64,000 nucleotides of DNA from an uncultured Acidobacteriota bacterium. Its GTDB lineage: Bacteria > Acidobacteriota > UBA6911. The position numbers were made by a program, and so were the translations under genes. Below the pieces are notes generated by a model. It was not told the origin of the DNA. It worked only from the letters and a program-made list of their open reading frames with translations, and made no database searches. Of the stretch, positions 11,048 through 64,000 are shown piece after piece; position 1 is the first letter of the stretch, and each line of letters opens with the position of its first letter. Where the stretch lies: assembly GCA_963809485.1 (NCBI GenBank), contig CAWEJX010000004.1, forward strand, positions 96,001 to 160,000, in the 5' to 3' direction.

Positions 11048-12727
11048 CTACCTCCACTTGTCGACCTCGACGCTCTGCAGATACATCAGTCCGCCGATGC
11101 TGTAGTAATTGTTGTTGGTTCCGCCGGTGACGATGATTTCCATCGCATTGGGCTGGAACCAGGGCTCCTGCCCTGCCGGCGCTTCCATCAGGTATTTCTT
11201 GAAATCATCAATCGTATTGTAACCGGCATTCTTGACAAAATTGGCGATCGGCGGGCTGAGGACCGCCGTGGCGCCGAAAAGGAACGGGGCCTGTGTGATA
11301 AAGATATCCTTGATGATCTTGGGGAAATTCATCTCTTTGCCCCAGACGTTGGCCCTCCAGTTTTTCGCCGATAGAACGCCCCATCCTTCAAACAGGCTCA
11401 CGATGTTCTGGTTCGGCTTGAAGCCCTTTCGAACTGAAAATGGCTGCCACGGGGAATCGCGCTCGTTCTCGGCAATGACGATGTTGATCAGGTTCATGGG
11501 ATTCCCCACGGTGCCCATGTAGGTCGTCCCCACTTTGCCGCAGTTGCCCAGGTTGATGGCGATCAGGCTCCACGCTCTTCCAATGGTGGTATTGGCATGG
11601 GCATACGGCCCCAGCGCGCCGATCTCATAGTTCAGCCCGATCTCGTCGCGGATCGCGCCGTTGATTACCAGGGCGCCCACAAAGCCGTTGTCGGACACCG
11701 AGATGGCTTCCTTTCCGGTGGACGCCACCGCAAGCAGCAGCGGCAGATATTCCGGTTTGCAGCCGGCCATGACTGCATTCACGGCAACGTCTTTGACCGT
11801 GAAGGTCCAGTACTCAAAATAGCCGCCGGTGTTGGTGGGCGACATCTTGCCGACAATTTCATCGGGATCGTGGCTGGTTCCCTTCAGCATGTCGGCGACC
11901 TTCTCCTCGGTCGGCAGAACCACCGGCAGGAAATCGGTCCACCGCTTTTCCAGAAACATCTTCTGAAGATTATCGGGAGTATCCGTAAATGTAGCCGGGC
12001 CTTTGTCCCGGACCAATTCGCCGGTCCTCTTTTCTTCAGCCGTCAACGGCTTGGTCAGATGCTCGACGATTTCCTGCATGACGTTCTTTTTGCTGATCGG
12101 ACTGATGCCGTTGACGACATCCCGGCGCAACTGTTCGCGGGTTTTTCCCCAAACCGGACCGCGAACCCACTCGATGCGCAGGCCGGGCATGCCTTTGAGA
12201 AGGGCGGCCTCTGTTTCCTGTTTGTAGAATTCGGAAAGGACCAGCGGAACGGCGGGAATACCCATGCTTGCTTCGAAATTGATGGAGTGGCCGACAACTG
12301 CCGGCGCACATTGGCTTCAATGGCCCATCCCGATGATTACGGCAGCGGCATTCTGCTTGATTTCGGCCCACAACTGCGGATCTTCAGCCTCAAAGCCCAT
12401 GCCGCCTTTTCTCTTGAACACAACCTTGGTCTTGGGCATGTTCTGTGTAAACCAGTCCACCATTTCGAGCAGAAGGTTGTCTCCTCCCACAAAGCCGTCG
12501 TCGACAATGTAGATTGTTTTGCCGTCGAGGGAGGCCGGACGCGGCGCCATTGATTTCAGTTTTACAGGGGGAGGATTCCCCAGCGGATTAAGCACCGTTA
12601 TCCTGGTCTCAGCGGAGGCTGCCGCCTTATTCCCCTGTGCCATAGCCTGATTGTCCAAAGCCGGGAAGCCGCAAAACAGGCCCAGGCAGAGCGCCGTAAT
12701 GACGGCCGTCGATATAAAGCCCTTCAT
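11048..12727 (-). CDS. exported UGSC-like selenoprotein (559 aa, Sec137, GMGH-U-SQC)
   Basis: ORFs 12317..12727 and 11048..12265 are in frame across a TGA at 12319-12317; signal peptide; SECIS-like hairpin; colinear with the uninterrupted paralog 25619-27379. Confidence 0.88.
12290..12305 (-). promoter_or_regulatory. bacterial SECIS-like hairpin GCCGGC-AGTT-GTCGGC
   Basis: starts 11 nt after the UGA; G in the apical loop; same geometry in three paralogs. Confidence 0.75.
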
Positions 12728-13059
12728 TGATTCATTACTCCTTTGATTTGGATTGGGATGGAATGCTTCCCCGGACCGCCCGCCAGGAGTGAGTAAGAAA
12801 ACCGCATGCGGGCGCGAGGCTTACATGGTCAATTCCCAATATTCCGTTACATTTTAAATCGTCCATCCCAACCTGCAGCCAACCGGCAGCAGGTTTGTCT
12901 GCATCCAATATGCGACGCAGACCATAACTGGGTTACATTAAACCATCAGCCGATCATCCTTATGACGGAGATCGCCTTCACTGTAGGCAGACGCTCCAGC
13001 ATCTGTCAAGGGCAAGGCAAATGACAGATGCGGCGCCGGACTAATTGGGCAGCCTGAAA

Positions 13060-13294
13060 GTCAGGTACCTCCGGCAAAGCGGAGGCTTGAAAGATTTGAA
13101 CCGCTCAAAGCGGTTGGACTAGTTCCGCCGGTCTTGAGCGCTGACTTACGCGGGCAAAAGCCGATGAGGCGCTTCCGATCCCCGCCGAACAAATCGGCGT
13201 TTGTCAGCGCTTTTATCAGCGTTTCTCAGCGTTTCAAAATACGGAGCTGTCAAACTCTTTGAGTCCCCCGGCAGAGCCGGGGTTTACCAATGTA
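13060..13294 (-). mobile_element. IS200/IS605-type MITE copy 4 (internal deletion)
   Basis: both ends present; deletion junction TTCCGATCCCC|GCCGAACAAATC. Confidence 0.8.
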
Positions 13295-13390
13295 ATTATG
13301 CTGCCGGCGTCGGAATCCTGCCCGAATTGTCGTAATATGCCGCATAATAGCCGACTATTGATGTCGTCGAACACAAAGGAGGTTCGCATC

Positions 13391-14803
13391 ATGAATGCAA
13401 GTTCAGCGAGAAAGACAATCCTGGAGCCGGCAAGGGATATAGAAATCTGCCGGGAGGCCGACGTCGTTGTTGTGGGCGGCGGGCCGGGAGGTATCGGATC
13501 GGCTCTGGCCGCGGCGCGCAGCGGCGCAGACACGGTGCTGGTGGAGAGGTACGGCCACCTCGGAGGCATGGCTACCGGCGGCCTGGTCACCATCATTCCG
13601 AACTTGAGCACCATAGACGGGAAGCAGCAGATAGCCGGCCTGTGCCAGGAACTGATTGACAGGCTGGACGCCAAAGGAGCAACGCACTATCCGAAGAAAG
13701 AGGACTGGGGCACCACGGACGAAAAGCTGGTCAAGTATTACATCGATGCAAACCTGGCCTGGTTCTACATACGCGACGACCTGAATATCGGCCGCAAAAG
13801 AGTGCTCTACACCGCCCTTTTCGATCCCGAAATCATGAAATGCGAGTTGAACACCATGATGGAGGAAGCCGGCGTAAAGCTGTATCTTCACTCGTGGGGC
13901 ACGCGGCCCATAATGGAGGGGAATACGGTTAAGGGCGTCTTTATCGAAAACAAGTCGGGAAGACGGGCGATCCTGGCAAAAGTGGTCATAGATTCCACCG
14001 GGGACGGCGACCTGCTGCAGCCTGCCGGCGCCGAGTGCGATACCCGGATGATCCCCGGCCTGAGAATTGCGGCCTTCGCATTTCCCTTCTGGATCGGCAA
14101 CATTAATATGAAGAAGGTCGAGGAATTCCGGCAAACCCAGCCCGACAAATACGCCGAATTGATGCAGGATCTTCGCCGGCAGGGCGGCGCCGCATTTTAT
14201 ATGAAGGACCTGGTGAAATATCACGACGGCGTCGTCTGGTACCACCCTTTCTTCCCATCAATGAAACAAGCAGATAATGATGAGATCAATCGGGTAGAAA
14301 TCGAAGGCCGCAAGAAAATGCTTCTCTCGTATGAGTTCTACCGGAAAAACGTGCCCGGTTTTGAGAACAGCTACGTCGCCCTCAGTTCACCGCAGCTTGG
14401 CCTCCAGGGTGGACAGAGAGTGGTCGGGGAGTACGTCTGCACGGCGAAAGACATGACGTCCGACGAAGTATTTCCCGACACCATTGCCATTTTCCCTGAC
14501 AACGACAACGGCGAGATCTCGGCCAAACACCCCAGTGTCTATGTCCCTTACCGAGCCCTGGTGCCGAAGAAAATCGACGGCTTGCTTGTCGCCTGCCGGG
14601 CGTTTTCCTCGGAATGGCAATATAACGAATACTTCAACCTGATCCCGCACTGCATCGCGATGGGGCAGGCGGCGGGAACAGCCGCAGCCTTGGCAGCAAG
14701 CGCAGGCATTCAACCCAGGCAGATTGATTGCGGCGCGCTGCAGAAGCGCCTGTTGCGCCAGGGAGTGATACTGCCCGACGAGATAGCGGGAAAGCGCGCG
14801 TAA
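13391..14803 (+). CDS. FAD-dependent oxidoreductase (FAD_oxidored family)
   Basis: VVVVGGGPGG; LGGMATGG; IDSTGDGD; VPYRALVPKKIDGLLVACR; MGQAAGTAAA. Confidence 0.9.
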   Translation: MNASSARKTILEPARDIEICREADVVVVGGGPGGIGSALAAARSGADTVLVERYGHLGGMATGGLVTIIPNLSTIDGKQQIAGLCQELIDRLDAKGATHYPKKEDWGTTDEKLVKYYIDANLAWFYIRDDLNIGRKRVLYTALFDPEIMKCELNTMMEEAGVKLYLHSWGTRPIMEGNTVKGVFIENKSGRRAILAKVVIDSTGDGDLLQPAGAECDTRMIPGLRIAAFAFPFWIGNINMKKVEEFRQTQPDKYAELMQDLRRQGGAAFYMKDLVKYHDGVVWYHPFFPSMKQADNDEINRVEIEGRKKMLLSYEFYRKNVPGFENSYVALSSPQLGLQGGQRVVGEYVCTAKDMTSDEVFPDTIAIFPDNDNGEISAKHPSVYVPYRALVPKKIDGLLVACRAFSSEWQYNEYFNLIPHCIAMGQAAGTAAALAASAGIQPRQIDCGALQKRLLRQGVILPDEIAGKRA

Positions 14804-14930
14804 TTCCGGGATCCTATCATCCGCGTATTTCTTTGTATTATTTAATCTTATGACGGATTCACTCCCGGCCATTTCCACGCAAAAGCAGCTATAGCTTTAA
14901 AATGTATTGGAAAATTTGTGCGCTCTGCGC

Positions 14931-14970
14931 CGAATGAGGACGATAATTATTATGTCCTCATTCGTTTTCT
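14931..14970 (+). terminator. intrinsic terminator
   Basis: CGAATGAGGAC/GTCCTCATTCG 11-bp stem followed by TTTTCT. Confidence 0.65.
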
Positions 14971-15104
14971 GTCTATTAAAATGGGGAGGGGATGCCTGCT
15001 CCCTCAGCATCCTGCATTCTTCATAGGAATGCGACAGCTCGGCATTTAGGCTGAGCGGAGCGCAACGGTTGTTTTATAGCGTTCCTACTTTATCGGGAGG
15101 CTCT

Positions 15105-15797
15105 ATGCGGCATTCTTGTGCATTTCTGTTCTTCATCCTGTTGCTCGGCTCATCGGCATTTGCCCAGGGCAGGGGGATCATTCAATGCGACCCGGGCTCC
15201 AAAATTCCGGTGCCGTCCTGGATCGCGCCTGGCAGACCTCATGTAATCGAGCAGCTGTCCTGCGGTCAAATGGTCAGTGTCGTCGGCATGGAGCGTGGAT
15301 ACGTGAAAATACAGATTGCCGACAAGCCCGCGTACATCGATGCCAAATACGTCCGCATCCTGGATGCCTCGGAACGAATACCGGTGGATGCCGGTGCCGG
15401 CAATAATGTCGCAGCCAAAAAGCCGGTCCCCATAGAGGACGAGGAACAGAACAAATGGAAGGTGCTCACCAAAGAGAACGTGGAAATCCGCGACGAGAAG
15501 CTCCTGAACCCGACGCATAAAAATGGGCCGAGAACCTTTTCAGCTACTATCCGCAATAAAAGCTCCTTTCCCGTCTCCCATCTCCAGCTGTTGGGAAGGC
15601 TGTACGACTGCGCCGGAACACCGGAAAAGGACAATTCCAATTGCGAGATCATCGGCGAAGTGAAGCCTGTAGTTCCTATATCTGTTCCACCCGGCCAGAC
15701 GCGGCGTTTGGCGGCCTCAATGATGTTTGAGTCCACTCCCCGCGCTAAAGGCACTTTTGCCTGGAGCTACAAAATTCTGGGTGTCCGCGTGGAATAA
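15105..15797 (+). CDS. secreted protein with SH3-like N-domain and Ig-like (FxLYD-like) C-domain
   Basis: GGAGG RBS; signal peptide ending SAFA; VSVVGMERGYVKIQ...AYIDAKYV; GRLYDC...VPPGQTR. Confidence 0.65.
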   Translation: MRHSCAFLFFILLLGSSAFAQGRGIIQCDPGSKIPVPSWIAPGRPHVIEQLSCGQMVSVVGMERGYVKIQIADKPAYIDAKYVRILDASERIPVDAGAGNNVAAKKPVPIEDEEQNKWKVLTKENVEIRDEKLLNPTHKNGPRTFSATIRNKSSFPVSHLQLLGRLYDCAGTPEKDNSNCEIIGEVKPVVPISVPPGQTRRLAASMMFESTPRAKGTFAWSYKILGVRVE

Positions 15798-15956
15798 ATT
15801 CGACCTCGCAAACCAACGGATACGATTTTTGCCGGCATCCTTCCGCGCTTGTCGGTATAAGCCGGCGTGTCATCAAAGTCTGCCGGCGCTGCACAGGCGT
15901 GTGAATTGCCGGCATCTCCGCTGACTCTGGTTTAAGGGCAATTTGCCGAAATCACT

Positions 15957-16898
15957 TCAATAGGCAACCTTCTGCTCAGCGAGCTCGCCGGCTGTAAATG
16001 GAACAGTCGCAAGAACTTCATCAGCAAAACCATCCTGAATGACAAAGAGGGCTGCGCCCAGCACCTGAGCCACCAGATCCGGATCGTCTATCTGAATGCC
16101 CTGCAAGGCTGCCATCCCCTGCAGGTAATAGACGAGGTTATTAAAAACCTCCTCCGGGTTGGTTCCTGTAAACAGATTGCCGTAAGAAATCATGCCCGCT
16201 CGGAACATGAACTCGCTGCCGGTGATGATGCTGGCAGCTTCAGGCTGGTTGAGCCGAATCTTGTTCCGATTGGAAAATGCCACCAGGTTACCGGCGTACG
16301 CCTTTGTCAGGAGTGCGGGAAAATCCTTGTTGCATCCGGCCGCAGAATCCGACAGCAGTTTCCCGGATGCCGGATCGAGATACGCATAGACAAAAAAGTC
16401 CCCGGCGAATTCAATGACTTCGTGGGACAGCTCCGCGCGCAGAGCGGCGTACTGCTCGCCATCCAGGCCCAGCTGCTGCCAGGCGTCCCCGAGCATCGCG
16501 TTCAGAATTGCCGCTTTCTGAATTACATATCCGCTCCCGGGATCGAGCGTAATCGATCCGGAATGCGCCGTGTAATCTTCCTCGTTGTGGGCTACAAAAC
16601 CGAATGCCACGGCCTGCTCCAGCTGGTGAGCGGGGCCGCCTCGCGCCATTTTCCAGACTCTGACGTAATCGACGTGAGTGCGGTCCATCAGGTACATTTG
16701 ATAATGCGACCCGAACATGTAGTTGGCAAAATCCGGAGCGGTGCTGCCGTAGATCGCGTTTTGGCGGCTCGATTCGCTCCCGCTCGCAATTTGGTTGGTG
16801 ATAAAGGCATGTGTCAGCGATCCCCAGGCAAAGGCTCCCTGGGAACCCGGCAGAAAAGCCAAAACAAAAGCAAGTGCGATTGTTGATTTCCGGCTCAT
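15957..16898 (-). CDS. secreted zinc-dependent phospholipase C-like protein
   Basis: AFA-WGSLTH mature N-terminus; GSTAPD; GFVAHNEEDYTAH; HEVIE. Confidence 0.7.
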   Translation of the reverse strand: MSRKSTIALAFVLAFLPGSQGAFAWGSLTHAFITNQIASGSESSRQNAIYGSTAPDFANYMFGSHYQMYLMDRTHVDYVRVWKMARGGPAHQLEQAVAFGFVAHNEEDYTAHSGSITLDPGSGYVIQKAAILNAMLGDAWQQLGLDGEQYAALRAELSHEVIEFAGDFFVYAYLDPASGKLLSDSAAGCNKDFPALLTKAYAGNLVAFSNRNKIRLNQPEAASIITGSEFMFRAGMISYGNLFTGTNPEEVFNNLVYYLQGMAALQGIQIDDPDLVAQVLGAALFVIQDGFADEVLATVPFTAGELAEQKVAY

Positions 16899-17387
16899 AC
16901 GTACCTCCACAAAATTGTGATTGCGGACGCTATAGGTTGGATTCCCGCTATTGGCTGCGATCAATAATGGATGAGAGGTCGCAAAAAATAATACTATACA
17001 TTTTCATCACGTGCACGACAAAAGGGCTTTAGCTCAGGAGGTGTTTGGCGCCTTTGCGGCTCGGCCAGCATCGGTATGTTCAAATGTTTCAAGGCCTTAC
17101 ATGGTTCTCCATGCATTTCGCCCGGAGTGTCTGTAGGCCCATCAGAAGGACAATAGACTATCCGCAGGCCGTTTCTGTGGTAGGATCATTTGTTACCTTA
17201 AAATACCGATCGACGCGCTGTCGACTGCGTGTCGAAGACAAGAAACTGAAACCAAAAGAATGCCTGCTCAGCCTTCGTCATCTGCAGTGAAATCCACAGG
17301 CCGCTCCCCGGGTCAGCATTCCCTTTTTCCGGCGTCAGGCATCACAAACGAGGAATTCAGCCTCAAACAACGACAGGAGCAATAAGC

Positions 17388-17969
17388 ATGCAGCCCGATT
17401 GGGTCAAGCAACTCTCCCACATGAAACTGGCCCCGTATATATGCAAGGCCAGGGCTCTCATCGGCGTTCCGAGAATCGGGGGCGAAAACATGTTCAGGCA
17501 CCAGATGATGACCCTTACGATTTTGCTGGATTACCTGGTGATCGATTCCGTCCTGCTCAAGGCCGCCACTATTCACGATGTCGCCGAAGATGCTCTCGGG
17601 ATGCCCGGGTTGAGCCGCAACGAGATGCTGGAGATCGACGACGAAGGCGGGCAGGTGTATGACCTGATGATCGAAGTCACCCGGCGCGTCGACGAGAATG
17701 GGAAAAAGGAACCAAAATCCCGGTACCTGCGGCGCATCATGGAATCGGGCAGCAATCGCGCCAAGGTCCTGAAGCTTGCCGACAGAATCAGCAATCTGGC
17801 TTCTCTGGGATGGGTTCACGACCGGCATTTTGTGGACAGAATAGTCGCTGAGACACGGGAATTTATTCTCCCGTACGCGCATGACATCAACGCCGATATG
17901 GAACGCGAGTTGCGGGATCTCATTGCTTCGAGAGAACGCAGACCTCATTCTGTCGATGCCGCAAGGTGA
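17388..17969 (+). CDS. HD-domain small alarmone hydrolase-like ((p)ppGpp hydrolase family)
   Basis: FRH...IHDVAED...EVTR...LKLADRISN. Confidence 0.75.
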   Translation: MQPDWVKQLSHMKLAPYICKARALIGVPRIGGENMFRHQMMTLTILLDYLVIDSVLLKAATIHDVAEDALGMPGLSRNEMLEIDDEGGQVYDLMIEVTRRVDENGKKEPKSRYLRRIMESGSNRAKVLKLADRISNLASLGWVHDRHFVDRIVAETREFILPYAHDINADMERELRDLIASRERRPHSVDAAR

Positions 17970-18162
17970 TCGGACCACCGATACGTCCGCAGCATGGGTC
18001 CGGCCTCCATACTCCCAGTGAGAATCGAAGGATTCCTGTGAGCGTTGCATTCCTTCTGCCGATATACGCTGCCCTGTTGCGAAATCCTGCAAGCAATGCC
18101 GGCCGCTGTGGTCTAAAATAGTCCGATAAGACAACCGGGCAACCTATGGGGGATGATGCCAA

Positions 18163-18600: not shown

Positions 18601-18654
18601 CCATGCACGGGCAGGGGATTCCCGCGGCCGACAAAAGAGTTTCGTGCACAATAG

Positions 18655-18746
18655 GTTTTTAAAGCTTTTTGAACCGCAGAATGTTGAATATGGAATGATG
18701 CATTTCGAAGTTCTGCGATTCGAAATTCGACATTCGATATTCAGCG
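18655..18746. repeat. short-period (about 7-mer GAAT/ATTC) palindromic intergenic repeat, copy A
   Basis: TTTAAAGCTTTTTGAACCGC-GAATGT... followed by ATTCGAA/ATTCGAC/ATTCGAT units; similar to 33836-33933. Confidence 0.6.
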
Positions 18747-18918
18747 AAATTTCTTTTATCCGGCCAGGAACAGAAAACATGCAACGAGGAGCGCCGCAAA
18801 CATGCAGAAAAAGCTTTCCCTCATGTTTTCCTTCCTGTGCCGGGTAAACCCGGCCAAGGCCTCCAGCTTTTGGTGCAAGCTTTTGCCTTCTTCCATAGCC
18901 GGGCGTTCCCAAATGCCT

Positions 18919-25618: not shown

Positions 25619-27379
25619 ATGAAAGAGAAAGTTGCGTTCACATGCCTGAATCCTCAGGGTGCAGTCGATATCGCCGCTCCTGCGGGTCTGACCGCTCCCC
25701 GCGTCAAAGACCTGGCCGGCAAGAGAGTCGGCATTTTCTGGGATGGCAAAAAGGGCGGCGACAACTTCTGCATCGCGCTGGAAGAGGCTCTGAAAAGGAA
25801 ATATCCCACAGCCCGGTTCATCCGCCTCGTATGGGGAGACGTCGAGGCGGCGGAGAAAAGCAAAAACGAAGTGGACACATTTGTCTTTGGTGTCGGCGAT
25901 GCGGGAATGGGGGGATGGGGCCAGTGCCGGAATGTAATGGACCTGGAAAAACTCGGCAAACCCGGAATTTTTGTAGTGGGAGAGAATGCCATTCACACGG
26001 CAAGAATGTCGGCGCGCGACTCGGGAATGCCCGGATTGCGGATCGTGAGCCTGCCTTCCATAGATTATTACCCCAACCGCTCGACGGCAGACGGACTGAG
26101 ACCTGTGGTAGAGGCACGCATAAGCCTCATTATCGACGCCTTAACCAAACCCCTGACGCCCGAGGAGAAGAATCCATCTTTGATGCCGCAAAGAGAGTTT
26201 CCGGCAAAAGTCAGGATTTCCGCCGAGAGCTATGAATTCGCACTGGATGAGTTCAACCGGGTATACCTCGAAAACCATTGGGGGGACGGCTTACCCCTTA
26301 TTCCTCCCACAAAAAAAGCCGTCAAGCGGATGCTTTCGGGGACCAAACGTTCCCCGGACGAGATTCTGGGCAAGATCCCCTTCCGCAACGGAATTGCCAC
26401 GATCGGGAAGGTGGCTGTGAACGCAGTGATGGCGGGCGCCAGGCCGGAGTACCTGCCCGTGATCATCGCCGCTATCGAATGCCTTGCCGAGGAGGGCTCC
26501 TTTTCTCACATGATGAGTTCGGAGGGCTCGTTCACCCTGATGATCATGGTCAGCGGGCCTATCTGCAGCGAGATCAACATGAATTCCGGCGTGGGACTGT
26601 TGGGCCATGGATGGCAGGCCAACAATACCATCGGTCGTGCCGTAAGATTGTGCATGACGAACCTGGGATATCTATGGCCCGGAGAAATCGATATGGCCCT
26701 GATCGGCCGCCCTTCCTCGCACACTTTCTATACCTTCGCCGAAAACATGGAGCAGAGCCCCTGGGAATCATTCAACGCGGGCCTGGGTTACGGGCCTGAG
26801 GACAGCTGCGTAACGCTTTCCACGGTTGGCGGCGCCGGTGGATTGGGCATGAAGATATACGGCGGAGGCGTGGTGGAACCCTGGGATGCTGCGGAGGTCC
26901 TTCAAAGCATGGCTGAGGAAGTGGCCGGCGATAGGGCGATATTTGCGGCTTACAAACTGGGAGTCGCCAATTATTTCGCTCATTTCCGCAAGCACATCAT
27001 GATCATTCATCCCGAACTGGCGATCATGCTGCAGCGTCTCGGATACAAAACCAAACGCAGTTTGCGCGACTACTTTTACGAGAGCTCAAGAGTGCCGTTT
27101 GAAGAACTCACCCTGGATGAGGTCAAGGGCTTAAGAGACAGGATGAACACAAAGCCGGGCGGAGTGTTCTTTGCGAACGATTCGATTGCCGCAAGCCAGC
27201 TTCCGCTTTTTAAGGCAGCTCTCAAACCGGGCGGCAAAGTCCCGGTAGTGAACCCCGACGACATCCACCTGATTGTCTCCGGCAGCATACCGGGATATTC
27301 GTTCGGCATGTCGTATATGCGTTCGGCGCACAAAACAAAACGCATCCAGGGGGCCAAGTTAACACGGTCCGGCCGCTGA
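25619..27379 (+). CDS. UGSC-like protein lacking Sec/Cys (GVGD-A-GMG), cytoplasmic
   Basis: colinear with the three selenoproteins (LNP.G...APR...L.GK; W.DGLP.IPPT; VAVNAVMAGA.PEY.P; ANNTIGRA); GGAGG RBS; no signal peptide. Confidence 0.85.
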   Translation: MKEKVAFTCLNPQGAVDIAAPAGLTAPRVKDLAGKRVGIFWDGKKGGDNFCIALEEALKRKYPTARFIRLVWGDVEAAEKSKNEVDTFVFGVGDAGMGGWGQCRNVMDLEKLGKPGIFVVGENAIHTARMSARDSGMPGLRIVSLPSIDYYPNRSTADGLRPVVEARISLIIDALTKPLTPEEKNPSLMPQREFPAKVRISAESYEFALDEFNRVYLENHWGDGLPLIPPTKKAVKRMLSGTKRSPDEILGKIPFRNGIATIGKVAVNAVMAGARPEYLPVIIAAIECLAEEGSFSHMMSSEGSFTLMIMVSGPICSEINMNSGVGLLGHGWQANNTIGRAVRLCMTNLGYLWPGEIDMALIGRPSSHTFYTFAENMEQSPWESFNAGLGYGPEDSCVTLSTVGGAGGLGMKIYGGGVVEPWDAAEVLQSMAEEVAGDRAIFAAYKLGVANYFAHFRKHIMIIHPELAIMLQRLGYKTKRSLRDYFYESSRVPFEELTLDEVKGLRDRMNTKPGGVFFANDSIAASQLPLFKAALKPGGKVPVVNPDDIHLIVSGSIPGYSFGMSYMRSAHKTKRIQGAKLTRSGR

Positions 27380-51738: not shown

Positions 51739-51741
51739 GGG

Positions 51742-56859: not shown

Positions 56860-57098
56860 CATTCCGCTCCACAATTTACCGGCCCTTCCCGTCCGCAGTT
56901 TCCTCCTGATCAAAAACTGAAGAAAAGCGATATGCCGGAAGTCCCGGCCAGGCCCCAGACCTTCCGCTTTACTGATTTCCAGATGCTCTGGCTTTGTTCG
57001 CCAGAGTCGTCTATCGCGCTTCTCGCGCCGGGAGGTGAAGCTCCATGGGTTTATGGAGCTTCACCTCTCAAAACAGCTCTCTAATTCCGGGGCGCAGC

Positions 57099-60000
57099 CT
57101 AAAACTGGAACCGGGCGACTATGATCCCCGCTCGAGGTGCAACGGCCACGGTAGTCGTATTGATGTATCCGAAGCCGGAAATCGTCTGGCCGGTGGCCGG
57201 GTTTCTGGTTTGCGTGGCTTGGGCGTTCGTCGATGTGGGACTATTCATCTCGGTGCGGTTGAAAATGTTTGAGAAATCCGCCCGTATATTGATCGAGATC
57301 CCCTCCTTGATCGGGAAATTGCGCGCGAGACTCATGCTTTCACCGGGCCGGCGCTGCTGCCGGTAATCGTTGTAATACGCGGCTCCGGTGCCGAATTGCC
57401 CGGCAGGCGGATCGACCCAGGCGTTCTTATTCAGAACAAATTCCTGGTTCGGGTCGATGCAATGACAGTTGAGATCCTTGGTGTAGAGGTCCTCCCCCGG
57501 TACCCGGTTGGCATAGGTGTTCTGGAAGAGCACCGAGCTGAGCTGATTTTGCGCGACCGGAGCCAGAATCGGCATGCCGCTTGCGTACTGCAAGGTTGCG
57601 CCGATCGTCCAATCCCGGAGTATCCAGGACGCAATCTTGTTGGCATTCCATGTCGGCACGGTGTAATTCGCCGCAATCACGAAAACAAGGGGCCGGGAGA
57701 GCATGGAAAGGTACTTGTTCACGCGCCGGTCGAAAACATTGTTTATCGCTGCGCCGCTTACTCCCATAGCATTCCCCTGCTGCTCCGCACCCATGGTCAG
57801 CTCTTTCTGCCAGGTAAAAGCAGCGGTGAAATCAAGCCCATAGGAATAGCGTTTGGTAACCTTTGCCTGCAAGGAGTCATACCAGGTTCTGCCAAGGGGC
57901 GCCCACATATATCGGATCGCGGGCGTACCGGTGGTCGTGCCTGCAAACTGCGGAAACGGGCGCAACGACTGGGCTACGGTAGACGACATCGGAAAGCCCT
58001 CATAGGGCGGTATGTTGAATCCGCGTTGCGCCGCCAGCGACGAATTCAGCGGAGAGGTCAGCAGCTTCCGGTCATCCGCGTTGTTGACGTTGAGCCCAAA
58101 AGAGGCAATACGCTCGGCTGACAACGCATTGACATTGATCAGGTCGTTGGCTTCCCACCAGGCGCCGCGGTTGCCGACATAGGAGATCTCCACGACCAGG
58201 TTCCTTAAGATCTCGTGCTGAATGCCAATGCTCCATTGGAACTGCCTCGGCGGCCGGCCGGCGTTGCCATCGATTGCGACCGGGGGCGCGCTGAGCGTGC
58301 CTGCAAGAGGATACAAACCGGCATCCAAGACAGGCCATGGCCTCGGAGCAGGCATGCCGTTGCGCAAGAGGCCCGCCGGATTGCCGTATGCGGGCGAGTA
58401 ATACGGGTTGCTGGAGCCGACCTTCCAGGATGCCTGATTTTCGTTGGCTGTTTGGCCGTAAGAGACGCCCAATCCCATACGCAGGACGGTTTTGGGCGTA
58501 ATCTGATATGCGGCTCCCAACCGCGGACCGAATGCATAGGGGTATACCTCCGCGAAGTCACAGTTGCACTGACCCGGTCCGGAGCCTTCATAAATCACGG
58601 CCCCCAACAGGCCGCCCGCGGATGGATTCGGGGTTGTGGGCGAGAAACTCGCGATCCGGCCGTGCGGATCCTTGAAGTACTCCTGGTAATCCCATCTAAG
58701 TCCGTAGTCGAGCGTAAATCTACGGGTAACCTTCCAGGTATCCTGGGCGTATGCCGACCATGCGGATTTACCCAGCCGGGGGTCGCTGGGAACCCCGCTG
58801 TTGCCGTCAGCAATAAGCCCCAGGAGAAAACTCGCGTAGGGGAATCCAATGGTGCCACCCTGCAAAGGCTGCCCCAGAATCGAGGGAAGACCGGTCTGCT
58901 CCACGCCGAAGTTGTAATAACCGTAGGAGGGGGCATAGAGTGTGGTGGGATATTTCTCCTGGCGCAATTCCGCGCCGAACTTCAAGGTGTGGTTATCCTT
59001 CACCCATGTAAGGCTGGCGCTTCCGGAAGGTTTGAACATAACCGATTTGGTTTGCATATAGGGGCCCATGTTGCCGGTCGCCATGCTGACCGCTCGCGCC
59101 GACATGCCGCCGCGAGCCGCCGAGAGTCCAGAAATGAATGGGAAGACGGTGTACAGAGATCCCGGAAGACCGAGTTCTTTGAGCTGGTCAAAATTGGTAT
59201 CGTATGCGGGATCCAGGAACTGCAGATTCTGGACACCGGCAGCCAAATGAAGCACCATGGTCGGCGTGACGGTATAATCAAAGGCCATCTGCGCTATATA
59301 AGACTCCTGGTCCGTATTCCTTTCGGTGGAGACCGGAGAAGGAATGCCGTCTCCCCCCGGAGGCCCGGGCGCGTGCTGGTTCAGGATATCTGTCGATGAC
59401 CAGAAGAACGAAAGCTTGGTGCGGTTGCTCAGGTTGTGGTTGATTTTGAAGGCCGGGATGGTTCGAATGTTGGGGCTGTCCCAGGGATTCAGATAGTTAA
59501 GTGTCACAGCCGCGCTCGTGGGTTCCGGAATGAGATTTTGGATCTTAACCGCGACCGGATCGAATCGGTCCTGCGGAATTGTGTTATTGGTAAACGGATC
59601 TCGAACGCGCAGTCCGTTAACGAGGCGTTCGGTCTGCGGATCGTATATCGTGCCTTCCATAATTGGACGGCCAAGGGGATCGCAATTGGGATTCGCCGTT
59701 GGACAAAGATTCTTCCCTGTCAGAGCTTGGCGGAAATCGCCGCTGCGATAAGCGAGAGTGGGCATCGTATATGTGGTATTAAACTTGGTCACCTCGCGGT
59801 ACTCCTCGAAGCTGAAAAAGAAGAACGTCTTATCGTGGCCGTCGTAAACCTTTGGGATGTAGACCGGCCCGCTGAAGGTGAAACCATAGTTGTTCCTGCG
59901 TACGCGGCTCTTCCTGTTTATAAAGGGCGTACTTGCGTTTAGCGCTTCATTGGACCAGTAGTCGTATGCGCTTCCGTGGTAGGAGTTGGTGCCGGATTTC

Positions 60001-60716
60001 ATGGTGATATTGAAATAGCCGCCGCCGGCCTGTCCGAACTCGGCGGCGTAGTTGCTGGTCTGAATCGCGTATTCCTCAATTGCGGCCATGCTTTGCTGGC
60101 TCATCCCCGTGCTCTGCTGCAGCATTCCGTTTGTGGCCTCCATTCCGTCGACCCGGATGCTCATCGAGGCGGAAGGGGCGCCATTGACGCGAAACCAGGC
60201 TCTGTTCTGGTAGAGCGTGCCCGGAAGCAGCGTCATCACCGCATAGGGATCTCGAATGATATTGGAAAATCCTAAAATGGGCAGGTTATCCACGCGCGTG
60301 CCGGTGACATTATGGCTGAGTTCGCCGCTTTCTGTTTTCAGGAGCGGCGCATCGGCGCTGACCGAAACAGTTTCGGTGATGGTGCCGACCTCCATCGCGA
60401 TATCAATGCGCAATGTCTGCGCAACCATGACCGTGATTCCGGTTCGTAAATACTGCTTGAATCCGGCCTGGGTTGCCGTGATCTGATAGACTCCGACCGG
60501 CAGTTGGGCCAGGGTGTAATTGCCAGTCGCCGAACTGACAGTCTGATAAACGGCCCCCGTTTGTGTGTTTTTGGCTTCAATCTGGGCTTTCGGGATCATG
60601 GCGCCGGCCGGGTCCGAAATGGTCCCGGTTATGGTGCCCCGGTCGCTTTGAGCCGAAGCCGGGGCTGCTGCGAAGATTAGACAAGCAACTGCAATCAAAC
60701 ATGCAACTGAACGCAT
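57099..60716 (-). CDS. TonB-dependent receptor (Oar-like, carboxypeptidase-regulatory-like N-domain)
   Basis: signal peptide; GTITGTISDPAGA; TSNYAAEFG..GGG; KSGTNSYHGS; QDTWKV..TLDYGLRWD; C-terminal RFQF. Confidence 0.93.
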   Translation of the reverse strand: MRSVACLIAVACLIFAAAPASAQSDRGTITGTISDPAGAMIPKAQIEAKNTQTGAVYQTVSSATGNYTLAQLPVGVYQITATQAGFKQYLRTGITVMVAQTLRIDIAMEVGTITETVSVSADAPLLKTESGELSHNVTGTRVDNLPILGFSNIIRDPYAVMTLLPGTLYQNRAWFRVNGAPSASMSIRVDGMEATNGMLQQSTGMSQQSMAAIEEYAIQTSNYAAEFGQAGGGYFNITMKSGTNSYHGSAYDYWSNEALNASTPFINRKSRVRRNNYGFTFSGPVYIPKVYDGHDKTFFFFSFEEYREVTKFNTTYTMPTLAYRSGDFRQALTGKNLCPTANPNCDPLGRPIMEGTIYDPQTERLVNGLRVRDPFTNNTIPQDRFDPVAVKIQNLIPEPTSAAVTLNYLNPWDSPNIRTIPAFKINHNLSNRTKLSFFWSSTDILNQHAPGPPGGDGIPSPVSTERNTDQESYIAQMAFDYTVTPTMVLHLAAGVQNLQFLDPAYDTNFDQLKELGLPGSLYTVFPFISGLSAARGGMSARAVSMATGNMGPYMQTKSVMFKPSGSASLTWVKDNHTLKFGAELRQEKYPTTLYAPSYGYYNFGVEQTGLPSILGQPLQGGTIGFPYASFLLGLIADGNSGVPSDPRLGKSAWSAYAQDTWKVTRRFTLDYGLRWDYQEYFKDPHGRIASFSPTTPNPSAGGLLGAVIYEGSGPGQCNCDFAEVYPYAFGPRLGAAYQITPKTVLRMGLGVSYGQTANENQASWKVGSSNPYYSPAYGNPAGLLRNGMPAPRPWPVLDAGLYPLAGTLSAPPVAIDGNAGRPPRQFQWSIGIQHEILRNLVVEISYVGNRGAWWEANDLINVNALSAERIASFGLNVNNADDRKLLTSPLNSSLAAQRGFNIPPYEGFPMSSTVAQSLRPFPQFAGTTTGTPAIRYMWAPLGRTWYDSLQAKVTKRYSYGLDFTAAFTWQKELTMGAEQQGNAMGVSGAAINNVFDRRVNKYLSMLSRPLVFVIAANYTVPTWNANKIASWILRDWTIGATLQYASGMPILAPVAQNQLSSVLFQNTYANRVPGEDLYTKDLNCHCIDPNQEFVLNKNAWVDPPAGQFGTGAAYYNDYRQQRRPGESMSLARNFPIKEGISINIRADFSNIFNRTEMNSPTSTNAQATQTRNPATGQTISGFGYINTTTVAVAPRAGIIVARFQF

Positions 60717-61038
60717 CGGGTGTATCCTCCTATCGCCTGCAATTTTATTGGCGCACAGAAACACGCACCGCTTATGGCTCCCTTGCCAACTTTTCGACTA
60801 TTGCATCCCCTCTCAACCTATTGCCGCATCGCATAGCTCGCTCAGATTGGCGGCGGTGACAGCGCGCCCTTCTCGGGCAACAACGTCAAGGAACGGCAGG
60901 GGCGTTATCGGGCTCCACTGAAAATCTGTTTCTGTTTGACAATATTATCTGCGGCGGTGTCCATTTGCGTGAGTTGTACGCGCCGCTACTAATGGTGATT
61001 TTAAGCTAGTCGATTTGTCAACTCGTTGTCAAGAAAAT

Positions 61039-61058
61039 ATGTCACAAATATGTGACAT
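61039..61058. promoter_or_regulatory. perfect palindrome ATGTCACA-AATA-TGTGACAT
   Basis: 8-bp inverted repeat in the divergent promoter region. Confidence 0.55.
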
Positions 61059-61373
61059 GGAAGTGACCCGGGCGGCAAAACTATGCTATAGTTGTCGCGT
61101 CGTGGGGAATCTCCAGACCAGGCGCTTTTATCTAACATATTGCCTAATACCAGACGCGGCCGGGAATCCGTGGAGGGAGATCTCCGTTCTATGCAGGCGG
61201 CCTGTGAATCATGTTTTGGACAAAGCGGCGGCAGGCTGCCGCATCCCAAACCATCTATAATTTTTTTATAATTTTTTTCGGAGGTTGTGATTCCCGATGT
61301 GGTTGAAGAAAGCCTGACGCACTAAAAACACAGCTATGGACCAACAGGATCAAAAATCAGGAAAGGGCGGCTT

Positions 61374-63161
61374 ATGAAAAACAGAGCAAGTTGTTTGCTG
61401 ATAGGGATCTTTTGGGTGACGGCCCTTTTGTCGGAATCGCTTTGGGCCGCGGATATTACAAAGATCACGGTGCTGAATCCGCGAGGCGTTCAGCCCCCGA
61501 TACGCTTGATACCCATGGCTCCCCGCCTCGATACATTGGATGGGAAGACGATCTACGTCGTGGATACCAAGTATCCGTTGACAAGGCCATTCGTACAGGA
61601 AGTCTTCAATGTGCTCAAGGAGAGGTATCCAAAAACAAACTGGATATTCCGGGACAAAATCGGCAGCTATTTTGATGATGATCCCAAGCTTTGGGCCGAG
61701 ATCAAGGAGAAAGGCCACGGCATGGTTATGGCCGTCGGGCATTGAAGCACCTGCTCGCCGGCGGTCGCCGGCCATTGTATCTCGGTTGAGAAGTTGGGTG
61801 TGCCAAGTGCCCCCATCATTACCGAAAGGTTTCAGGACCTTGTCCGGACCATTTCATGGAAGAAGGGGGTGCCGAACATGCGCTTTACATTTGTTCCGCA
61901 TCCCGTTGCAGGCAAAGCCGCCGACATTTGCCGTCGATACTTGCTGGGCAACGATCCGCTGACAGGAAAGCCGGTTGTGGACGAACTTGTGGCGGCCTTG
62001 ACGCGACCGCTGTCCGCGGACGACATGAAGAAGGGATTTCTGACAAGAGATCCGCGGCCGAGAATGCTGAAACCTGATACCGCAGCAAACCTGGAAAAGC
62101 TATTCAATGACAGTCTGTGGACGGACGGGCTTCCTATTGTGCTTCCGACAGAAGACAAAGTCGCCGAGATGCTCAGGGCCACCAGTCACAAGGCGGATGA
62201 GACCGTAGGCACGATGCGTCCGTCGCCTCCGCACGAAGCGTGGGAATACACGGTCGAAATGGTTGCGGCCAACGCGGTGATGGCGGGAGCAAAGCCCGAA
62301 TATTTTCCGGTTATCCTGGCCCTGGCCTCAACGGGAGTGACCTCGCTTTTCACATCTACGACGTCTTTTGCCCGGATGATGGTGCTGAACGGGCCGATCA
62401 TCCAGCAGATCAATATGAACACAGGCATTGGAGCCATGGGACCTTTCAATCAGGCTAATGCCACGATTGGAAGAGCCTGGACGCTAATATCCAAGAACCT
62501 GGGCGGAGGAGGGGTTCCCGGCGAAACCTATTTGGGCAGCCAGGGCAGCAATCTCAATTACAACAATCTGTGTTATCCGGAAACGGAAGATGGCTTGCCT
62601 GCCGGGTGGAACCCTCTCCACGTGCAAAAGGGTTTCAAAAAGAACGACAGCGTCGTGAGCACCTTCACGGGCTGGAGCATCAGCAACTATGGCGGCTACA
62701 TAAGCCTGCCGCACAACGAAATCATGAAGTGGCAGCTGCAAAACTTTTTCACGAGCGGGACCGGAAGCAATGGGTCGGCTACTCTCCTGTTGGATCCCGT
62801 GGTCGCCAGAGACCTGAAGGATAGGTTTGACACAAAAGAAAAACTGGTCGAATGGCTCGCTCAAAATGCCACGACGCCGGCCTGGCATTACTGGGCTCGG
62901 GGAGAAGATCAGCTGAAACAGGCAAAATCGGGGGTCGAACCTTTTGCGTCCTATCTGAAATTGGGGGAGATTGCGTCATTGCCCGTTTCGCCCTTCCTCC
63001 GGAGGCCTATGGCTGCGAAGACTCCATCTCAAGGCAAGCCGCCCGACGGCCCTCCGCGCTCCCCGATCGAGATCATTGTGGTGGGAGGAGGCACGAATGC
63101 CTTCTGGGTTGCGGGAGACTTCAGCTATGTCTCCAGTGCTTCCGTCGACAAGTGGAGGTAA
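61374..63161 (+). CDS. exported UGSC-like selenoprotein (595 aa, Sec124, AVGH-U-STC)
   Basis: ORFs 61374..61745 and 61794..63161 are in frame across TGA 61743-61745; signal peptide ending SLWA; SECIS-like hairpin. Confidence 0.9.
61757..61772 (+). promoter_or_regulatory. bacterial SECIS-like hairpin GCCGGC-GGTC-GCCGGC
   Basis: 11 nt after the UGA; perfect 6-bp stem; loop starts with G. Confidence 0.78.
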
Positions 63162-63281
63162 CGCGCCGCAGCGAAATTCGCCCACGGAATATCCTGTGGT
63201 TTTGAGTTTCCCTATGGAGTCGCAGTGCTGACGGTAATGCACGCGGTTCATGTCCATTTTTCGTTCAAAGGAGATCAGATC

Positions 63282-64000
63282 ATGAAAAAGAGGATCGGTT
63301 GGCCGGCATTCGCAGTTTGTCTCCTTGCCTGCCTTGTTATTTCGTGCACCCAAAATCCGGAACAGCGGACGCTTACGGTCTTGAATCCTGTCGGCTCGGC
63401 TTCTCCGACTCCGCTGATCCCGATGGCGCCTCGCCTGGATACGCTGGAAGGAAAGACCATCTATATCGTGGATGTGATGTATCCGCTCACTCATCAGCTA
63501 TTCGAAGAAATGCAGAAAGTGCTGTCCGAAAAATACCCCAAGACGAACTGGGTGGTCAAAAGCAAGGCGGGCACCTACTTTGATAATGACCCTAAACTGT
63601 GGGAAGAAGTCAAGGCGCAAGCCCAGGGAATGATCATAGGCGTCGGCCATTGAAGCAGCTGCACGCCGGCGGTCGCCAGCCATGCTATTACGGTCGAGAA
63701 ACTTGGAGTGCCCACAGCCCCCATCGTCACCAGTCGATTTCAGGATGTCTCAGAAGCCACTGCCGCCAGCAAGGGCATGCCCCGGGCACGATTCACTTAT
63801 ATCCATCACCCGGTTTCGAACAAGCCTGCGGCGGAGTGCCGAAAATACATCGAGGGCAACGATCCTTTGACCGGCAAACCGGTGGTTGAGGAGATTGTAG
63901 CCGCTCTAACCAAACCATTATCGGATGAGGATAAAAAGACCGGGTTCGTGGAAAAACCTCGGGAAAGGCTGCTAAAACCCGATACAGCGCAGAATCTGGA
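63282..64000 (+). CDS. lipoprotein UGSC-like selenoprotein (Sec124, GVGH-U-SSC), runs off the window
   Basis: lipobox-like LVISC; TGA 63651-63653; the frame stays open (SSCTPAVASHAITVEKLGVP...KPDTAQNL) and aligns with the upstream paralog. Confidence 0.88.
63665..63680 (+). promoter_or_regulatory. bacterial SECIS-like hairpin GCCGGC-GGTC-GCCAGC
   Basis: 11 nt after the UGA; same loop as the 61757 hairpin; one C-A mismatch. Confidence 0.7.

Follow-up and report, generated by a model that had tools for sequence, protein, structure and literature searches.

The window, by which we mean the whole 64,000-nt stretch that was analysed, carries three related genes with an in-frame UGA, and their sequences support reading them as exported fusions of a UGSC domain with a C-terminal "Unknown_1" domain, the UGA standing at the redox position as a predicted selenocysteine (Sec, U) codon. 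Gene 1 (11048..12727, minus strand) would encode 559 aa with TGA read as U, comprising a signal peptide, a UGSC domain with the motif G-H-U-S-Q-C and the Unknown_1 domain, with Sec as residue 137. Gene 2 (61374..63161, plus strand) would encode 595 aa in the same way and is a predicted exported long-form UGSC selenoprotein (G-H-U-S-T-C) with Sec as residue 124. The 5' part of gene 3 (63282..64000, plus strand) predicts a further long-form UGSC selenoprotein (G-H-U-S-S-C), again with Sec as residue 124; the gene continues past the end of the window to about window-equivalent position 65042, giving 586 aa from the Met at 63282 in an open frame of 626 codons that is intact apart from its single UGA. 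The Pfam domain PF24696 (UGSC) spans the UGA in all three genes with E values of 9e-24 to 6e-32 (9e-24 over residues 45-205 in gene 1) and scores of 84.9, 92.2 and 111.7 bits, above the gathering cut-off of 25. The scores of the three proteins against the NCBIfam equivalog model NF041046 (50.9, 62.4 and 79 bits) fall below its cut-off of 125, and the motif in each is U-S-Q/T/S-C and not U-G-S-C; on this sequence evidence the three proteins are divergent long-form UGSC relatives, not NF041046 equivalogs. The AlphaFold2 model of the gene 2 product (pLDDT 83.8) places U124 between a strand (116-122) and a helix (127-140).

A fusion of UGSC with Unknown_1 was described in 2008 (Zhang and Gladyshev, PMC2398784, Fig. 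S1A), and a C-terminal block, A-V-N-x-V-M-A-G-C/A-x-P-E-Y, is common to the Unknown_1 alignment published there and to genes 1 and 2 when compared by eye. The proteins share with the UGSC family (PF24696, NF041046) the N-terminal PF24696 domain and the U-x-x-C motif but differ from it in the G-H-U-S-x-C form of that motif, in their signal peptides and in the dozens of copies per genome found in this genus.

Each UGA is followed by a small candidate SECIS hairpin. At site 1, in gene 1, the in-frame UGA (12319-12317, minus strand; context CAU UGA AGC) precedes the hairpin GCCGGC-AGUU-GUCGGC (12305-12290, minus strand), whose arms at 12305-12300 and 12295-12290 form 6 bp including one G-U; a longer stem of 9 bp, in which one C is bulged, can form over 12287-12309. 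At site 2, in gene 2, the in-frame UGA (61743-61745, plus strand) is followed by GCCGGC-GGUC-GCCGGC (61757-61772, plus strand), a perfect 6-bp stem. The in-frame UGA of gene 3 (site 3; 63651-63653, plus strand) is followed by a weakened form, GCCGGC-GGUC-GCCAGC (63665-63680, plus strand), a sequence also present in a near-identical gene of another genome, G006. The distance from UGA to loop is 17 nt at all three sites (an 11-nt spacer plus 6 nt of stem), which puts the first loop G at nt 18-19 after the UGA. The window contains three matches to the pattern TGA-N11-GCCGGC-N4-GYCRGC, where 100 shuffles give an expectation of 0.00, although the matches are not independent events, given that the genes are paralogues of one another. 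An earlier sequence-only reading had proposed these three sites with an AGC after every UGA and a shared NGUY loop, and we recovered each of them at exactly the coordinates it gave and with both features. The G-U change that it noted in one stem is that of site 1, and the stem of site 2 is perfect, but it passed over the third pair of site 3, a C·A mismatch owing to which that site has no 6-bp stem, only 2 + 3 bp.

The minimal SECIS of E. coli fdhF likewise begins 11 nt after the UGA and has a G and a U in its loop. Its 17-nt apical stem-loop suffices for SelB recruitment (PMC11431864), and the elements described here resemble it as small apical stem-loops but are 16 nt long, are without the bulged U at sites 2 and 3 (at site 1 a C is bulged further down the stem) and lie in an acidobacterium. 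A general description of bacterial SECIS elements is found in PMC4605307, and the bSECISearch model (Zhang and Gladyshev; restated in the legend to Fig. 2 of PMC13188914) specifies a loop of 3-9 nt, a stem of 4-16 bp, at least one G among the first two nucleotides of the loop, a spacing of 16-37 nt from UGA to loop and a minimum free energy (MFE) of -7.5 kcal/mol or lower. The three elements agree with this consensus in lying in the coding region directly 3' of a Sec-UGA, in having a 4-nt loop with a G in its first two positions, in the 17 nt from UGA to loop and the loop G some 20 nt past the UGA and, at sites 1 and 2, in a 6-bp upper stem with an energy below -7.5 kcal/mol. Folded alone, the hairpins reach -9.0, -11.7 and -5.5 kcal/mol at sites 1, 2 and 3 (-10.6, -12.8 and -6.6 in a 30-nt context), so that the bare hairpin of site 3 stays above the energy threshold, although the element scored by the published program may be longer. 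Site 3 also departs from the stem of 4-16 bp on a strict reading (3 bp by the loop, the C·A mismatch, then 2 bp), the spacing is close to the minimum that the model allows, and sites 2 and 3 are without an evident lower stem. Applied strictly, to perfect hairpins and with all of these limits, the published model was passed by 23 of 41 Sec paralogues of the genome and by none of 13 non-Sec paralogues, with 199 of 4000 random in-frame positions also passing. A search of the window against Rfam gave no match at gathering score, and the three gene loci matched no SECIS family at E <= 10.

The stability of these regions is not what sets them apart. The 60 nt after each UGA showed no unusual stability against dinucleotide shuffles (z of -0.05, -1.17 and +1.78), and the RNAfold MFE structure of the 60 nt at site 3 did not form the hairpin listed above; because the shuffle scores are unremarkable, the hairpins are notable by position and conservation and not by stability. 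Against synonymous resampling the scores were z -1.80 (p 0.043), -1.32 (0.097) and -0.17 (0.41) at sites 1, 2 and 3, and the synonymous null folds of the peptide already reach -9 to -13 kcal/mol. Sites 2 and 3 do not significantly surpass such nulls, which speaks for an alternative in which coding yields the hairpin as a by-product: the peptide C-x-P-A-V-(A/V)-G would happen to be self-complementary when written in GC-rich codons, and the RNA would have no function. We consider this explanation very improbable, albeit the best placed of the three alternatives weighed here, and the codons of the family argue against it. Across 32 sequences of the G-H-U subfamily, the commonest codon holds a share of 0.89-0.94 at six columns of 4- to 6-fold degeneracy (+4 to +9), compared with 0.33-0.71 at 22 other conserved columns (means of 0.92 versus 0.46; Mann-Whitney p 1.2e-4), and the His codon at -1 is CAT in 31 of the 32. 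The near-fixed silent sites are confined to codons -1 to +9 (nt -3 to +27).

Covariation points the same way. A gap-free alignment of 88 distinct Sec homologues in the same register has 85.4% of hairpin cells paired. Both partners have changed in three of the six pairs (25 cells), and none of 500 shuffles reached the covariation score of 0.227, versus 0.135. The third base of the Pro codon covaries with that of the Val codon (CCG/GUC, CCC/GUG, CCU/GUA), both changes being synonymous and thus silent in the peptide on which a coding by-product would depend. This signal emerges only after metagenome relatives are added: the 28 genus sequences of the three-site subfamily contain no both-side change, only G-C/G-U exchanges, a point in favor of the by-product explanation. 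A hairpin at the same offset recurs in sister subfamilies whose peptides differ widely, a further point against a coding by-product. One of them has an 8-bp stem at the 11-nt offset with 97.3% of cells paired and compensatory changes in four of its eight pairs, and RNAalifold predicts this hairpin and that of the three-site subfamily unaided. At nt 18-21 after the UGA, 73 metagenome Sec homologues from all subfamilies carry GGTC (50), GACC (13) or AGTT (1), the other 9 being of a G-G-U-D type with the loop in another register. Collectively, these sequence comparisons support the conclusion that selection acts on the RNA structure of the hairpin.

Family members without Sec offer a further contrast. 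The genome has 58 UGSC matches, of which 54 were aligned after four short TGA-less fragments were dropped; TGA occupies one alignment column in 41, with x-x-C following in 40 of these, and the remaining 13 have neither U nor C there. One of the latter serves as an internal control in the window (25646..26146, plus strand; UGSC domain, G-D-A-G-M-G-G-W, no U and no Cys), and no hairpin was found at the equivalent place. No perfect hairpin begins 7-18 nt past the codon in 3 of 41 Sec paralogues, versus 10 of 13 non-Sec paralogues. In seven paralogues where U has become Leu, the peptide C-A-P-S/A-V/T is kept, yet its codons vary and the predicted MFE folds are without the stem-loop of the three sites, which is difficult to reconcile with a structure generated by coding.

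Homologues with Cys give a more mixed result. The UGA column of 79 metagenome homologues holds TGA in 73 and TGC in 6, a Sec-to-Cys ratio that can be set beside the 255 Sec and 21 Cys forms of the 2008 UGSC survey (PMC2398784). Only about four Cys lineages are represented in the comparisons that follow: the six Cys homologues pair 20 of 36 hairpin cells compared with 85% in Sec forms, and two of the five distinct Cys sequences carry a SECIS-like hairpin, compared with 72 of 72 Sec sequences. Two of the pairs are broken in the Cys form of the P-A-T-V clade, which uses CCC and GGC where all 13 Sec forms use CCA and (G/A)GT, again contrary to a coding by-product. In one Cys lineage (L096/L099), however, an 8-bp stem persists at nearly the same position, and the two classes are not told apart by generic folding energy, the five distinct Cys sequences being at least as structured as Sec forms (mean z of -1.83 against synonymous nulls, 3 of 5 at p <= 0.05, versus -0.95 and 21 of 70); both observations favor the by-product explanation. 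The sequence-only reading had named equal conservation of the hairpin in Cys homologues as evidence against itself, and such conservation is missing from three of the five distinct Cys sequences but is seen in part in the L096/L099 lineage, and the generic energies draw no line between Cys and Sec forms. The Cys comparison is a weak test of the SECIS reading.

Conservation of the tract could also stem from short-tract gene conversion or another DNA-level process among paralogues in place of selection on RNA. The genome has dozens of paralogues and some are nearly identical, as with the sites at C12:47701 and C12:73234, which are identical over 60 nt and show recent duplication or exchange. We regard this explanation as slightly less probable again than the coding by-product, since the limits of the tract are the same in 32 sequences from many genomes, between flanks saturated at silent sites, and the tract is kept in metagenome relatives at 39-63% protein identity. 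Moreover, the changes seen preserve pairing, and the non-Sec paralogues of the same genomes do not share the tract.

The Acidobacteriota MAG encodes tRNA-Sec as well as selA (565 bits), selB (391 bits) and selD (346 bits), the last with an in-frame TGA of its own. Ten other candidate selenoprotein genes of the genome have a similarly placed hairpin, with the loop 18-27 nt after the UGA: it starts at 18-23 nt in genes for SelD, a NiFe hydrogenase, one MvhD, two Trx-like proteins, Pyr_redox_2 and GrdB-like, UshA-like and rhodanese-like proteins, and at 27 nt in a second MvhD. The GrdB-like gene (L079) has a GUG loop at 18 nt on a stem that starts 12 nt after the UGA, and its product carries L-L-L-P-A-U-P-G-C-T...E-E-A-G-V-P-T, a local pattern that by eye resembles that of the UGSC domain; PF07355 (GrdB/PrdB) gave no match in the three UGSC genes. 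A different geometry in other selenoprotein genes of the genome, the second outcome that the sequence-only reading had said would count against it, was not what we found, in that unrelated families share a similar one. Least probable of all is that the UGAs are real stops in split genes or pseudogenes with the hairpin as translational or transcriptional punctuation between two ORFs: standard ORF calling (table 11) does split each gene (with ORFs of 405 aa at 11048-12265 and 455 aa at 61794-63161 listed), but a single Pfam domain spans each UGA, the codon keeps to one column with x-x-C after it and is exchanged for TGC in the metagenome homologues that lack it, the Sec machinery is complete, and no run of U follows the stem at any of the three sites.

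Taken together, the UGA within the UGSC domain, the Sec machinery, a geometry that fits bSECIS, the constraint on silent sites, the compensatory changes, the absence of the hairpin from non-Sec paralogues and the geometry shared with other families support the SECIS reading, and we put at roughly 90% the probability that the three hairpins are bacterial SECIS elements in genes for exported UGSC/Unknown_1 fusion selenoproteins. By analogy with established bacterial Sec decoding, when the UGA reaches the ribosome, the 6-bp stem with its G/U-containing tetraloop would just have emerged 11 nt downstream at the mRNA entrance, where the winged-helix domains at the C-terminus of SelB, loaded with Sec-tRNA(Sec), would bind it. 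SelB would then bring selenocysteine into the A site, competing there with release factor 2, and in the product a U-x-x-C redox motif would lie at the N-terminal end of a helix. The binding by SelB, the insertion of Sec itself and how well the mismatched site 3 works are what we infer from this scheme. Given that an in-frame UGA and a small hairpin fit the bacterial Sec signal in three related genes, the hairpins add unexceptional new cases of a recoding signal already known, in a selenoprotein family that is likewise known.

The burst of paralogues is more notable than the hairpins themselves. About 45 UGA-containing UGSC-type loci are present in the genome and, together with the 10 others, bring it to at least 55 candidate UGA-Sec loci; the largest published bacterial selenoproteomes, as cited in PMC13188914, number 57 and 63. 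We tentatively propose, at somewhat less than even odds, that in this acidobacterial genus a single family of exported selenoproteins has expanded to dozens of copies, that each subfamily has kept or rebuilt its own SECIS at the same 10-13 nt offset through covariation at silent sites, and that the resulting set of loci is near the largest in print. If this is true, the paralogue burst would constitute a natural mutational series for SelB-SECIS recognition and would point to heavy use of selenium outside the cytoplasm in an environmental lineage.

Reading TGA as selenocysteine (Sec, U) resolved each of the three genes into one open reading frame, with gene 1 encoding 559 amino acids, gene 2 encoding 595, and gene 3 holding a 626-codon open frame (586 amino acids from the Met at window position 63282) that passes the window end and is intact in the contig. 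All three proteins begin with a hydrophobic signal-like segment and carry the motif G-H-U-S-x-C-x-P-A-V. The Pfam UGSC domain (PF24696) spans the UGA in each at 85 to 112 bits, against a cut-off of 25; the NCBIfam UGSC equivalog model gave all three only 51 to 79 bits, with a cut-off of 125. No Pfam family was found in the C-terminal 350 residues, which hold a conserved block, A-V-N-A-V-M-A-G-(C/A)-K-P-E-Y. The same block is aligned as "Unknown_1" of a UGSC/Unknown_1 fusion in the available part of Zhang and Gladyshev (2008, PMC2398784), and this domain architecture is therefore already in print. An AlphaFold2 model of the gene 2 product, built on 20 paralogues (pLDDT 83.8, pTM 0.82), placed U124 between a strand (116-122) and a helix (127-140). 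In Foldseek, the N-terminal domain drew from the PDB only weak hits of Rossmann/flavodoxin-like type (best E 5e-4, TM 0.18-0.22), and no sequence match in the PDB was better than E 0.79. The only functional feature that we propose is a putative U-x-x-C redox motif.

Gene 1 neighbors two genes for FAD-dependent oxidoreductases and one for a C_GCAxxG_C_C protein, and genes 2 and 3 lie in tandem, adjoining a gene for a TonB-dependent-receptor-like outer-membrane protein. Just downstream of gene 1 is a long hairpin (window ~10743-10835, minus strand; L023:134-226 in the fetched locus) that scored 46 bits (E 1e-7) with an Rfam plant microRNA-precursor model whose gathering score is 88; this hairpin is probably no more than a long inverted repeat or a terminator-like element. 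Between gene 1 and an FAD oxidoreductase gene, at window ~13050-13230, lies an intergenic repeat with about 170-250 copies in the genome and six-frame pseudo-peptides of the form '...TAQSGWTSYAGLER*LTRAKADEALPIP...', which may be REP- or MITE-like.

The sequence-only reading had described a SECIS-like hairpin exactly 11 nt after the UGA in all three genes, and re-reading bore out its sequences and coordinates throughout. Site 1, on the minus strand, has its TGA at 12319-12317, followed by an 11-nt spacer whose first three bases are AGC, and then GCCGGC-AGTT-GTCGGC at 12305-12290. On the plus strand, site 2 has TGA at 61743-61745 and GCCGGC-GGTC-GCCGGC at 61757-61772, and site 3 has TGA at 63651-63653 and GCCGGC-GGTC-GCCAGC at 63665-63680. 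The account of the stems held only in part: a G-U pair is present, at site 1, and site 2 is perfectly paired, but the third pair of site 3 is a C·A mismatch. This mismatched sequence also occurs in a near-identical gene of another genome (292 of 301 nt identical), a copy that carries little information because the genes are so alike. The hairpin energies are -9.0, -11.7, and -5.5 kcal/mol for sites 1 to 3, and the site 3 hairpin is absent from the RNAfold minimum-energy fold of 60 nt. At no site did the 60 nt after the UGA fold better than dinucleotide shuffles (RNAfold z -0.05, -1.17, and +1.78). The combined hairpin pattern has three matches in the window, all of them paralogues, where 0.00 were expected. 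Rfam gave no match in the window at gathering score, and a search of the loci of genes 1 to 3 brought up no SECIS family at E<=10; this negative result says little, because the library has no fitting model.

The minimal SECIS of Escherichia coli has the same 11-nt spacing. The available text of PMC4605307 gives bacterial SECIS hairpins a length of 6-8 bp and places their conserved loop G ~20 nt past the UGA; at sites 1 to 3 the loop starts 17 nt after the UGA. We consider the hairpins to be canonical bacterial Sec recoding signals; this is the best-supported reading, and we put its probability at about 90%. With the UGA in the A site, the stem-loop would be positioned at the mRNA entrance, where it would recruit SelB carrying Sec-tRNA(Sec). 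The analysis establishes the position of the hairpin, selection on it at the RNA level, the presence of the machinery, and its confinement to UGA-bearing members; binding of SelB, insertion of Sec, and the efficiency of the mismatched site 3 we infer.

The sequence-only reading cautioned that the peptide P-A-V constrains part of the hairpin. P-A-V-A-G in GC-rich codons is self-complementary anyway, which accounts for the weak result of synonymous-codon resampling at sites 1 to 3 (p 0.043, 0.097, and 0.41). The view that the hairpin is a by-product of the coding sequence would fit a minority of the data. Across the 41 Sec paralogues of this genome, the native sequences folded better than the synonymous nulls (mean z -1.06; p<=0.05 in 9 of 41), as opposed to a mean z of +0.27, with 0 of 13 at p<=0.05, for the non-Sec paralogues (Mann-Whitney p 1e-4). 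The bSECIS model, as given in the available text of a 2026 review (PMC13188914), has a 3-9 nt loop with a G in its first two positions, a 4-16 bp stem, a spacing of 16-37 nt, and an energy <= -7.5 kcal/mol. Of the 41 Sec paralogues, 23 passed its strict form, whereas none of the 13 without Sec did; among 4000 in-frame positions drawn at random, 199 passed. The hairpin is restricted to the UGA-bearing members of the family.

Selection at the RNA level is evident at silent sites. Among 32 G-H-U sequences (15 from this genome and 17 from relatives), the commonest codon had a share of 0.89-0.94 (mean 0.92) at codons +4 to +9, counted from the UGA; for 22 further conserved columns of 4- to 6-fold degeneracy the share was 0.33-0.71 (mean 0.46; p 1.2e-4). 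The frozen silent tract is exactly 30 nt long, and its 3' limit is the exact 3' end of the stem. No covariation was found in 28 genus sequences of the subfamily of genes 1 to 3, where only G-C/G-U changes occurred, G-U being the commoner. A metagenome scan, from which we took the best 80 of at least 585 long-form relatives, added 60 distinct H/L/T-U-S-type sequences, giving a gap-free alignment of 88. In the exact register of the sequence-only reading (UGA-N11, 6-bp stem, 4-nt loop), 85.4% of cells paired, both sides had changed in three of six pairs (25 cells), and none of 500 shuffles reached the observed covariation score, 0.227. Synonymous positions do preserve the pairing, as had been claimed: the silent third base of Pro covaries with that of the second Val (G-C, C-G, U-A). 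In a sister subfamily, G-D-U-G-S/T-C-T, some members of which are stand-alone forms from other families, the offset is again 11 nt; the stem there has 8 bp and is 97.3% paired, with compensatory changes in four of eight pairs. RNAalifold predicted both hairpins unaided. In one metagenome clade, G-H-U-S-T-C-A-P-A-V-A-A/V-H (L108-L140 and others), the outer two stem pairs are lost and a ~9-bp stem with one bulged C surrounds the same GGUC loop, reminiscent of bulged SECIS stems.

Gene conversion, by which the paralogues would owe their shared hairpin to copying, likewise would fit a minority of the data. That the UGAs are true stops would also fit only a minority of the data, and the three alternatives are contradicted by the silent-site covariation, the non-Sec controls, or the domain that spans the UGA.

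The base before the UGA was always a pyrimidine in the 41 UGA-containing UGSC loci of this genome (T in 26, C in 15), which His and Asp codons force in the loci that have them. In these loci the 12 Gly codons before the UGA are GGC or GGT without exception; at codon -2 of the G-H-U subfamily, by comparison, 17 of 32 sequences encode the conserved Gly with GGG or GGA. His at codon -1 is CAT in 31 of 32 G-H-U sequences, compared with a dominant CAC at another His column. This preference may be a context effect on recoding.

The sequence-only reading had also asked whether Cys homologues keep the hairpin equally well. No Cys-for-Sec homologue was found among the 58 PF24696 matches in this genome, among the matches listed for 40 relatives, or in a sample of 401 genomes of the phylum. 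The six TGA-less relatives that we fetched (five of the listed relatives and one from the phylum sample) were all U-to-Leu, as was this genome's own TGA-less copy of the subfamily, and the predicted folds of the U-to-Leu forms lack the stem-loop although C-A-P-S-V is kept. Among the metagenome homologues covering the site (best 80 of at least 585), 73 of 79 had TGA and 6 of 79 TGC. The six Cys forms had 20 of 36 cells paired in the register of the three sites, and a SECIS-like hairpin was present in two of five distinct Cys sequences versus 72 of 72 Sec sequences. In the P-A-T-V clade, CCA with (G/A)GT occurred in 13 of 13 Sec forms, and the Cys form has CCC with GGC, breaking two pairs. The answer was mixed, with three of the five distinct Cys sequences lacking a SECIS-like hairpin and one lineage keeping an 8-bp stem. 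Folding energy against synonymous nulls failed to discriminate Sec from Cys forms (mean z -0.95 and -1.83, respectively), the Cys forms being no less structured; this, like the retained stem, counts against the SECIS reading. The comparison, which covers about four Cys lineages, would only mildly support a SECIS. The lineage that keeps the stem (metagenome loci L096 and L099, G-H-C-S-T-C-A-P-A-V-A-V-H) has it near the SECIS position with the apical GGUC closure gone, and it may carry what remains of a SECIS after recently switching from Sec to Cys.

The Sec machinery is present in the genome (6.04 Mb in 21 contigs, completeness 95.7%, contamination 7.3%), which has a tRNA-SeC, selB (391 bits; G000:C20:730205-732088), selA (565 bits), and a selD (346 bits) with its own in-frame TGA inside the TIGR00476 match. 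PF24696 matched 58 places, of which 54 were aligned, four short TGA-less fragments being left out. TGA occupies one alignment column in 41 of these 54 paralogues, followed by x-x-C in 40 of the 41, and the remaining 13 have neither U nor C there. PF24696 was found in 24 of 24 other genomes searched within the genus (9-45 matches each) and in 2 of 16 from other families of the class (one match each). One UGSC-like gene (G000:C13:46038) has a tandem TGA-TGA (G-G-U-U-G-G). Three tandem long forms at G000:C4:341659-348100, missed by PF24696 at E<=0.001, carry G-G-Q-S-W-U-G-A-A-T, with Sec and no resolving Cys; in all three, a GUGUUCA-GUC-UGAAUAC hairpin begins 13 nt past the UGA.

The sequence-only reading had further considered that other selenoprotein genes of this genome might use a different geometry, and the loops did not bear this out. 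The best G-loop hairpins of the other families have loop starts 18-23 nt after the UGA in nine genes and 27 nt in a second MvhD gene, alongside the 17 nt of sites 1 to 3. A Pfam domain spans the UGA in a NiFe hydrogenase large subunit, an MvhD/FlpD, two thioredoxin-like proteins, and a Pyr_redox_2 protein; the second MvhD and a rhodanese-like gene each matched Cys paralogues, and what speaks for the GrdB-like and UshA-like UGA genes is context and hairpin only. Five further loci (L083, L084, L085, L086, and L087), with no Pfam domain across the UGA, were dropped as candidates. In the NiFe hydrogenase gene (G000:C1:340038-341498), the UGA occupies the second Cys position in the N-terminal motif R-x-C-G-x-C (R-I-C-G-V-U-P-A-S-H-H), whereas the usual Sec site is C-terminal. 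This position lies within the PF00374 match and is Cys in four paralogues, and the hairpin loop begins 22 nt past the UGA. An enoyl-CoA hydratase gene (G000:C20:784794-785564) carries a TGA in frame within its ECH_1 domain (G-L-G-I-L-U-P-Y-G), not at a typical Cys position, and 16 nt downstream a 7-bp hairpin with a GGU loop begins; an unusual selenoprotein is one possible explanation, and a pseudogene or a sequencing error are others. A 320-amino-acid protein without a Pfam family (G000:C4:306910-307869; L-P-K-G-A-U-P-S-G-P-T-A-W-D) is a candidate unclassified selenoprotein; 13 nt past its in-frame TGA a strong hairpin, CUGCGUG-GGA-CGCGCAG, begins.

In total, at least 55 UGA-Sec candidate loci were counted (41 PF24696, three W-U-G-A-A long forms, one fragment, and ten of other families), a lower-bound estimate rather than a census, which includes fragments and near-duplicates in an assembly with 7% contamination. 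The count is a lower bound because both genome-wide screens were noisy: one by codon log-odds and hairpin was swamped by antisense frames, and a Sec/Cys tblastn screen was swamped by the intergenic repeat (~200 copies) and then filtered. The largest bacterial selenoproteomes are put at 57 and 63 genes in the available text of the 2026 review (PMC13188914), and the accessible part of a 2025 paper gives 46 selenoprotein genes. Of four papers found on Acidobacteriota selenoproteins, none deals with this expansion by its title or abstract.

In summary, the hairpins are SECIS elements of the bacterial type already known, the selenoprotein family that carries them is known as well (UGSC-containing, with a long form fused to Unknown_1), and the hairpins add little to RNA biology because they fit the known bacterial SECIS. 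The UGSC family nevertheless offers unusually clean evidence that an RNA structure lies within coding sequence. Standard gene callers break each of the three genes into two, although each is one selenoprotein gene, and dozens more in the genome and genus are split likewise. Beyond the known SECIS, what stands out is the scale of the UGA-Sec loci, and the size of the UGSC paralogue family, its export signals, and its function are more interesting than the hairpin itself.
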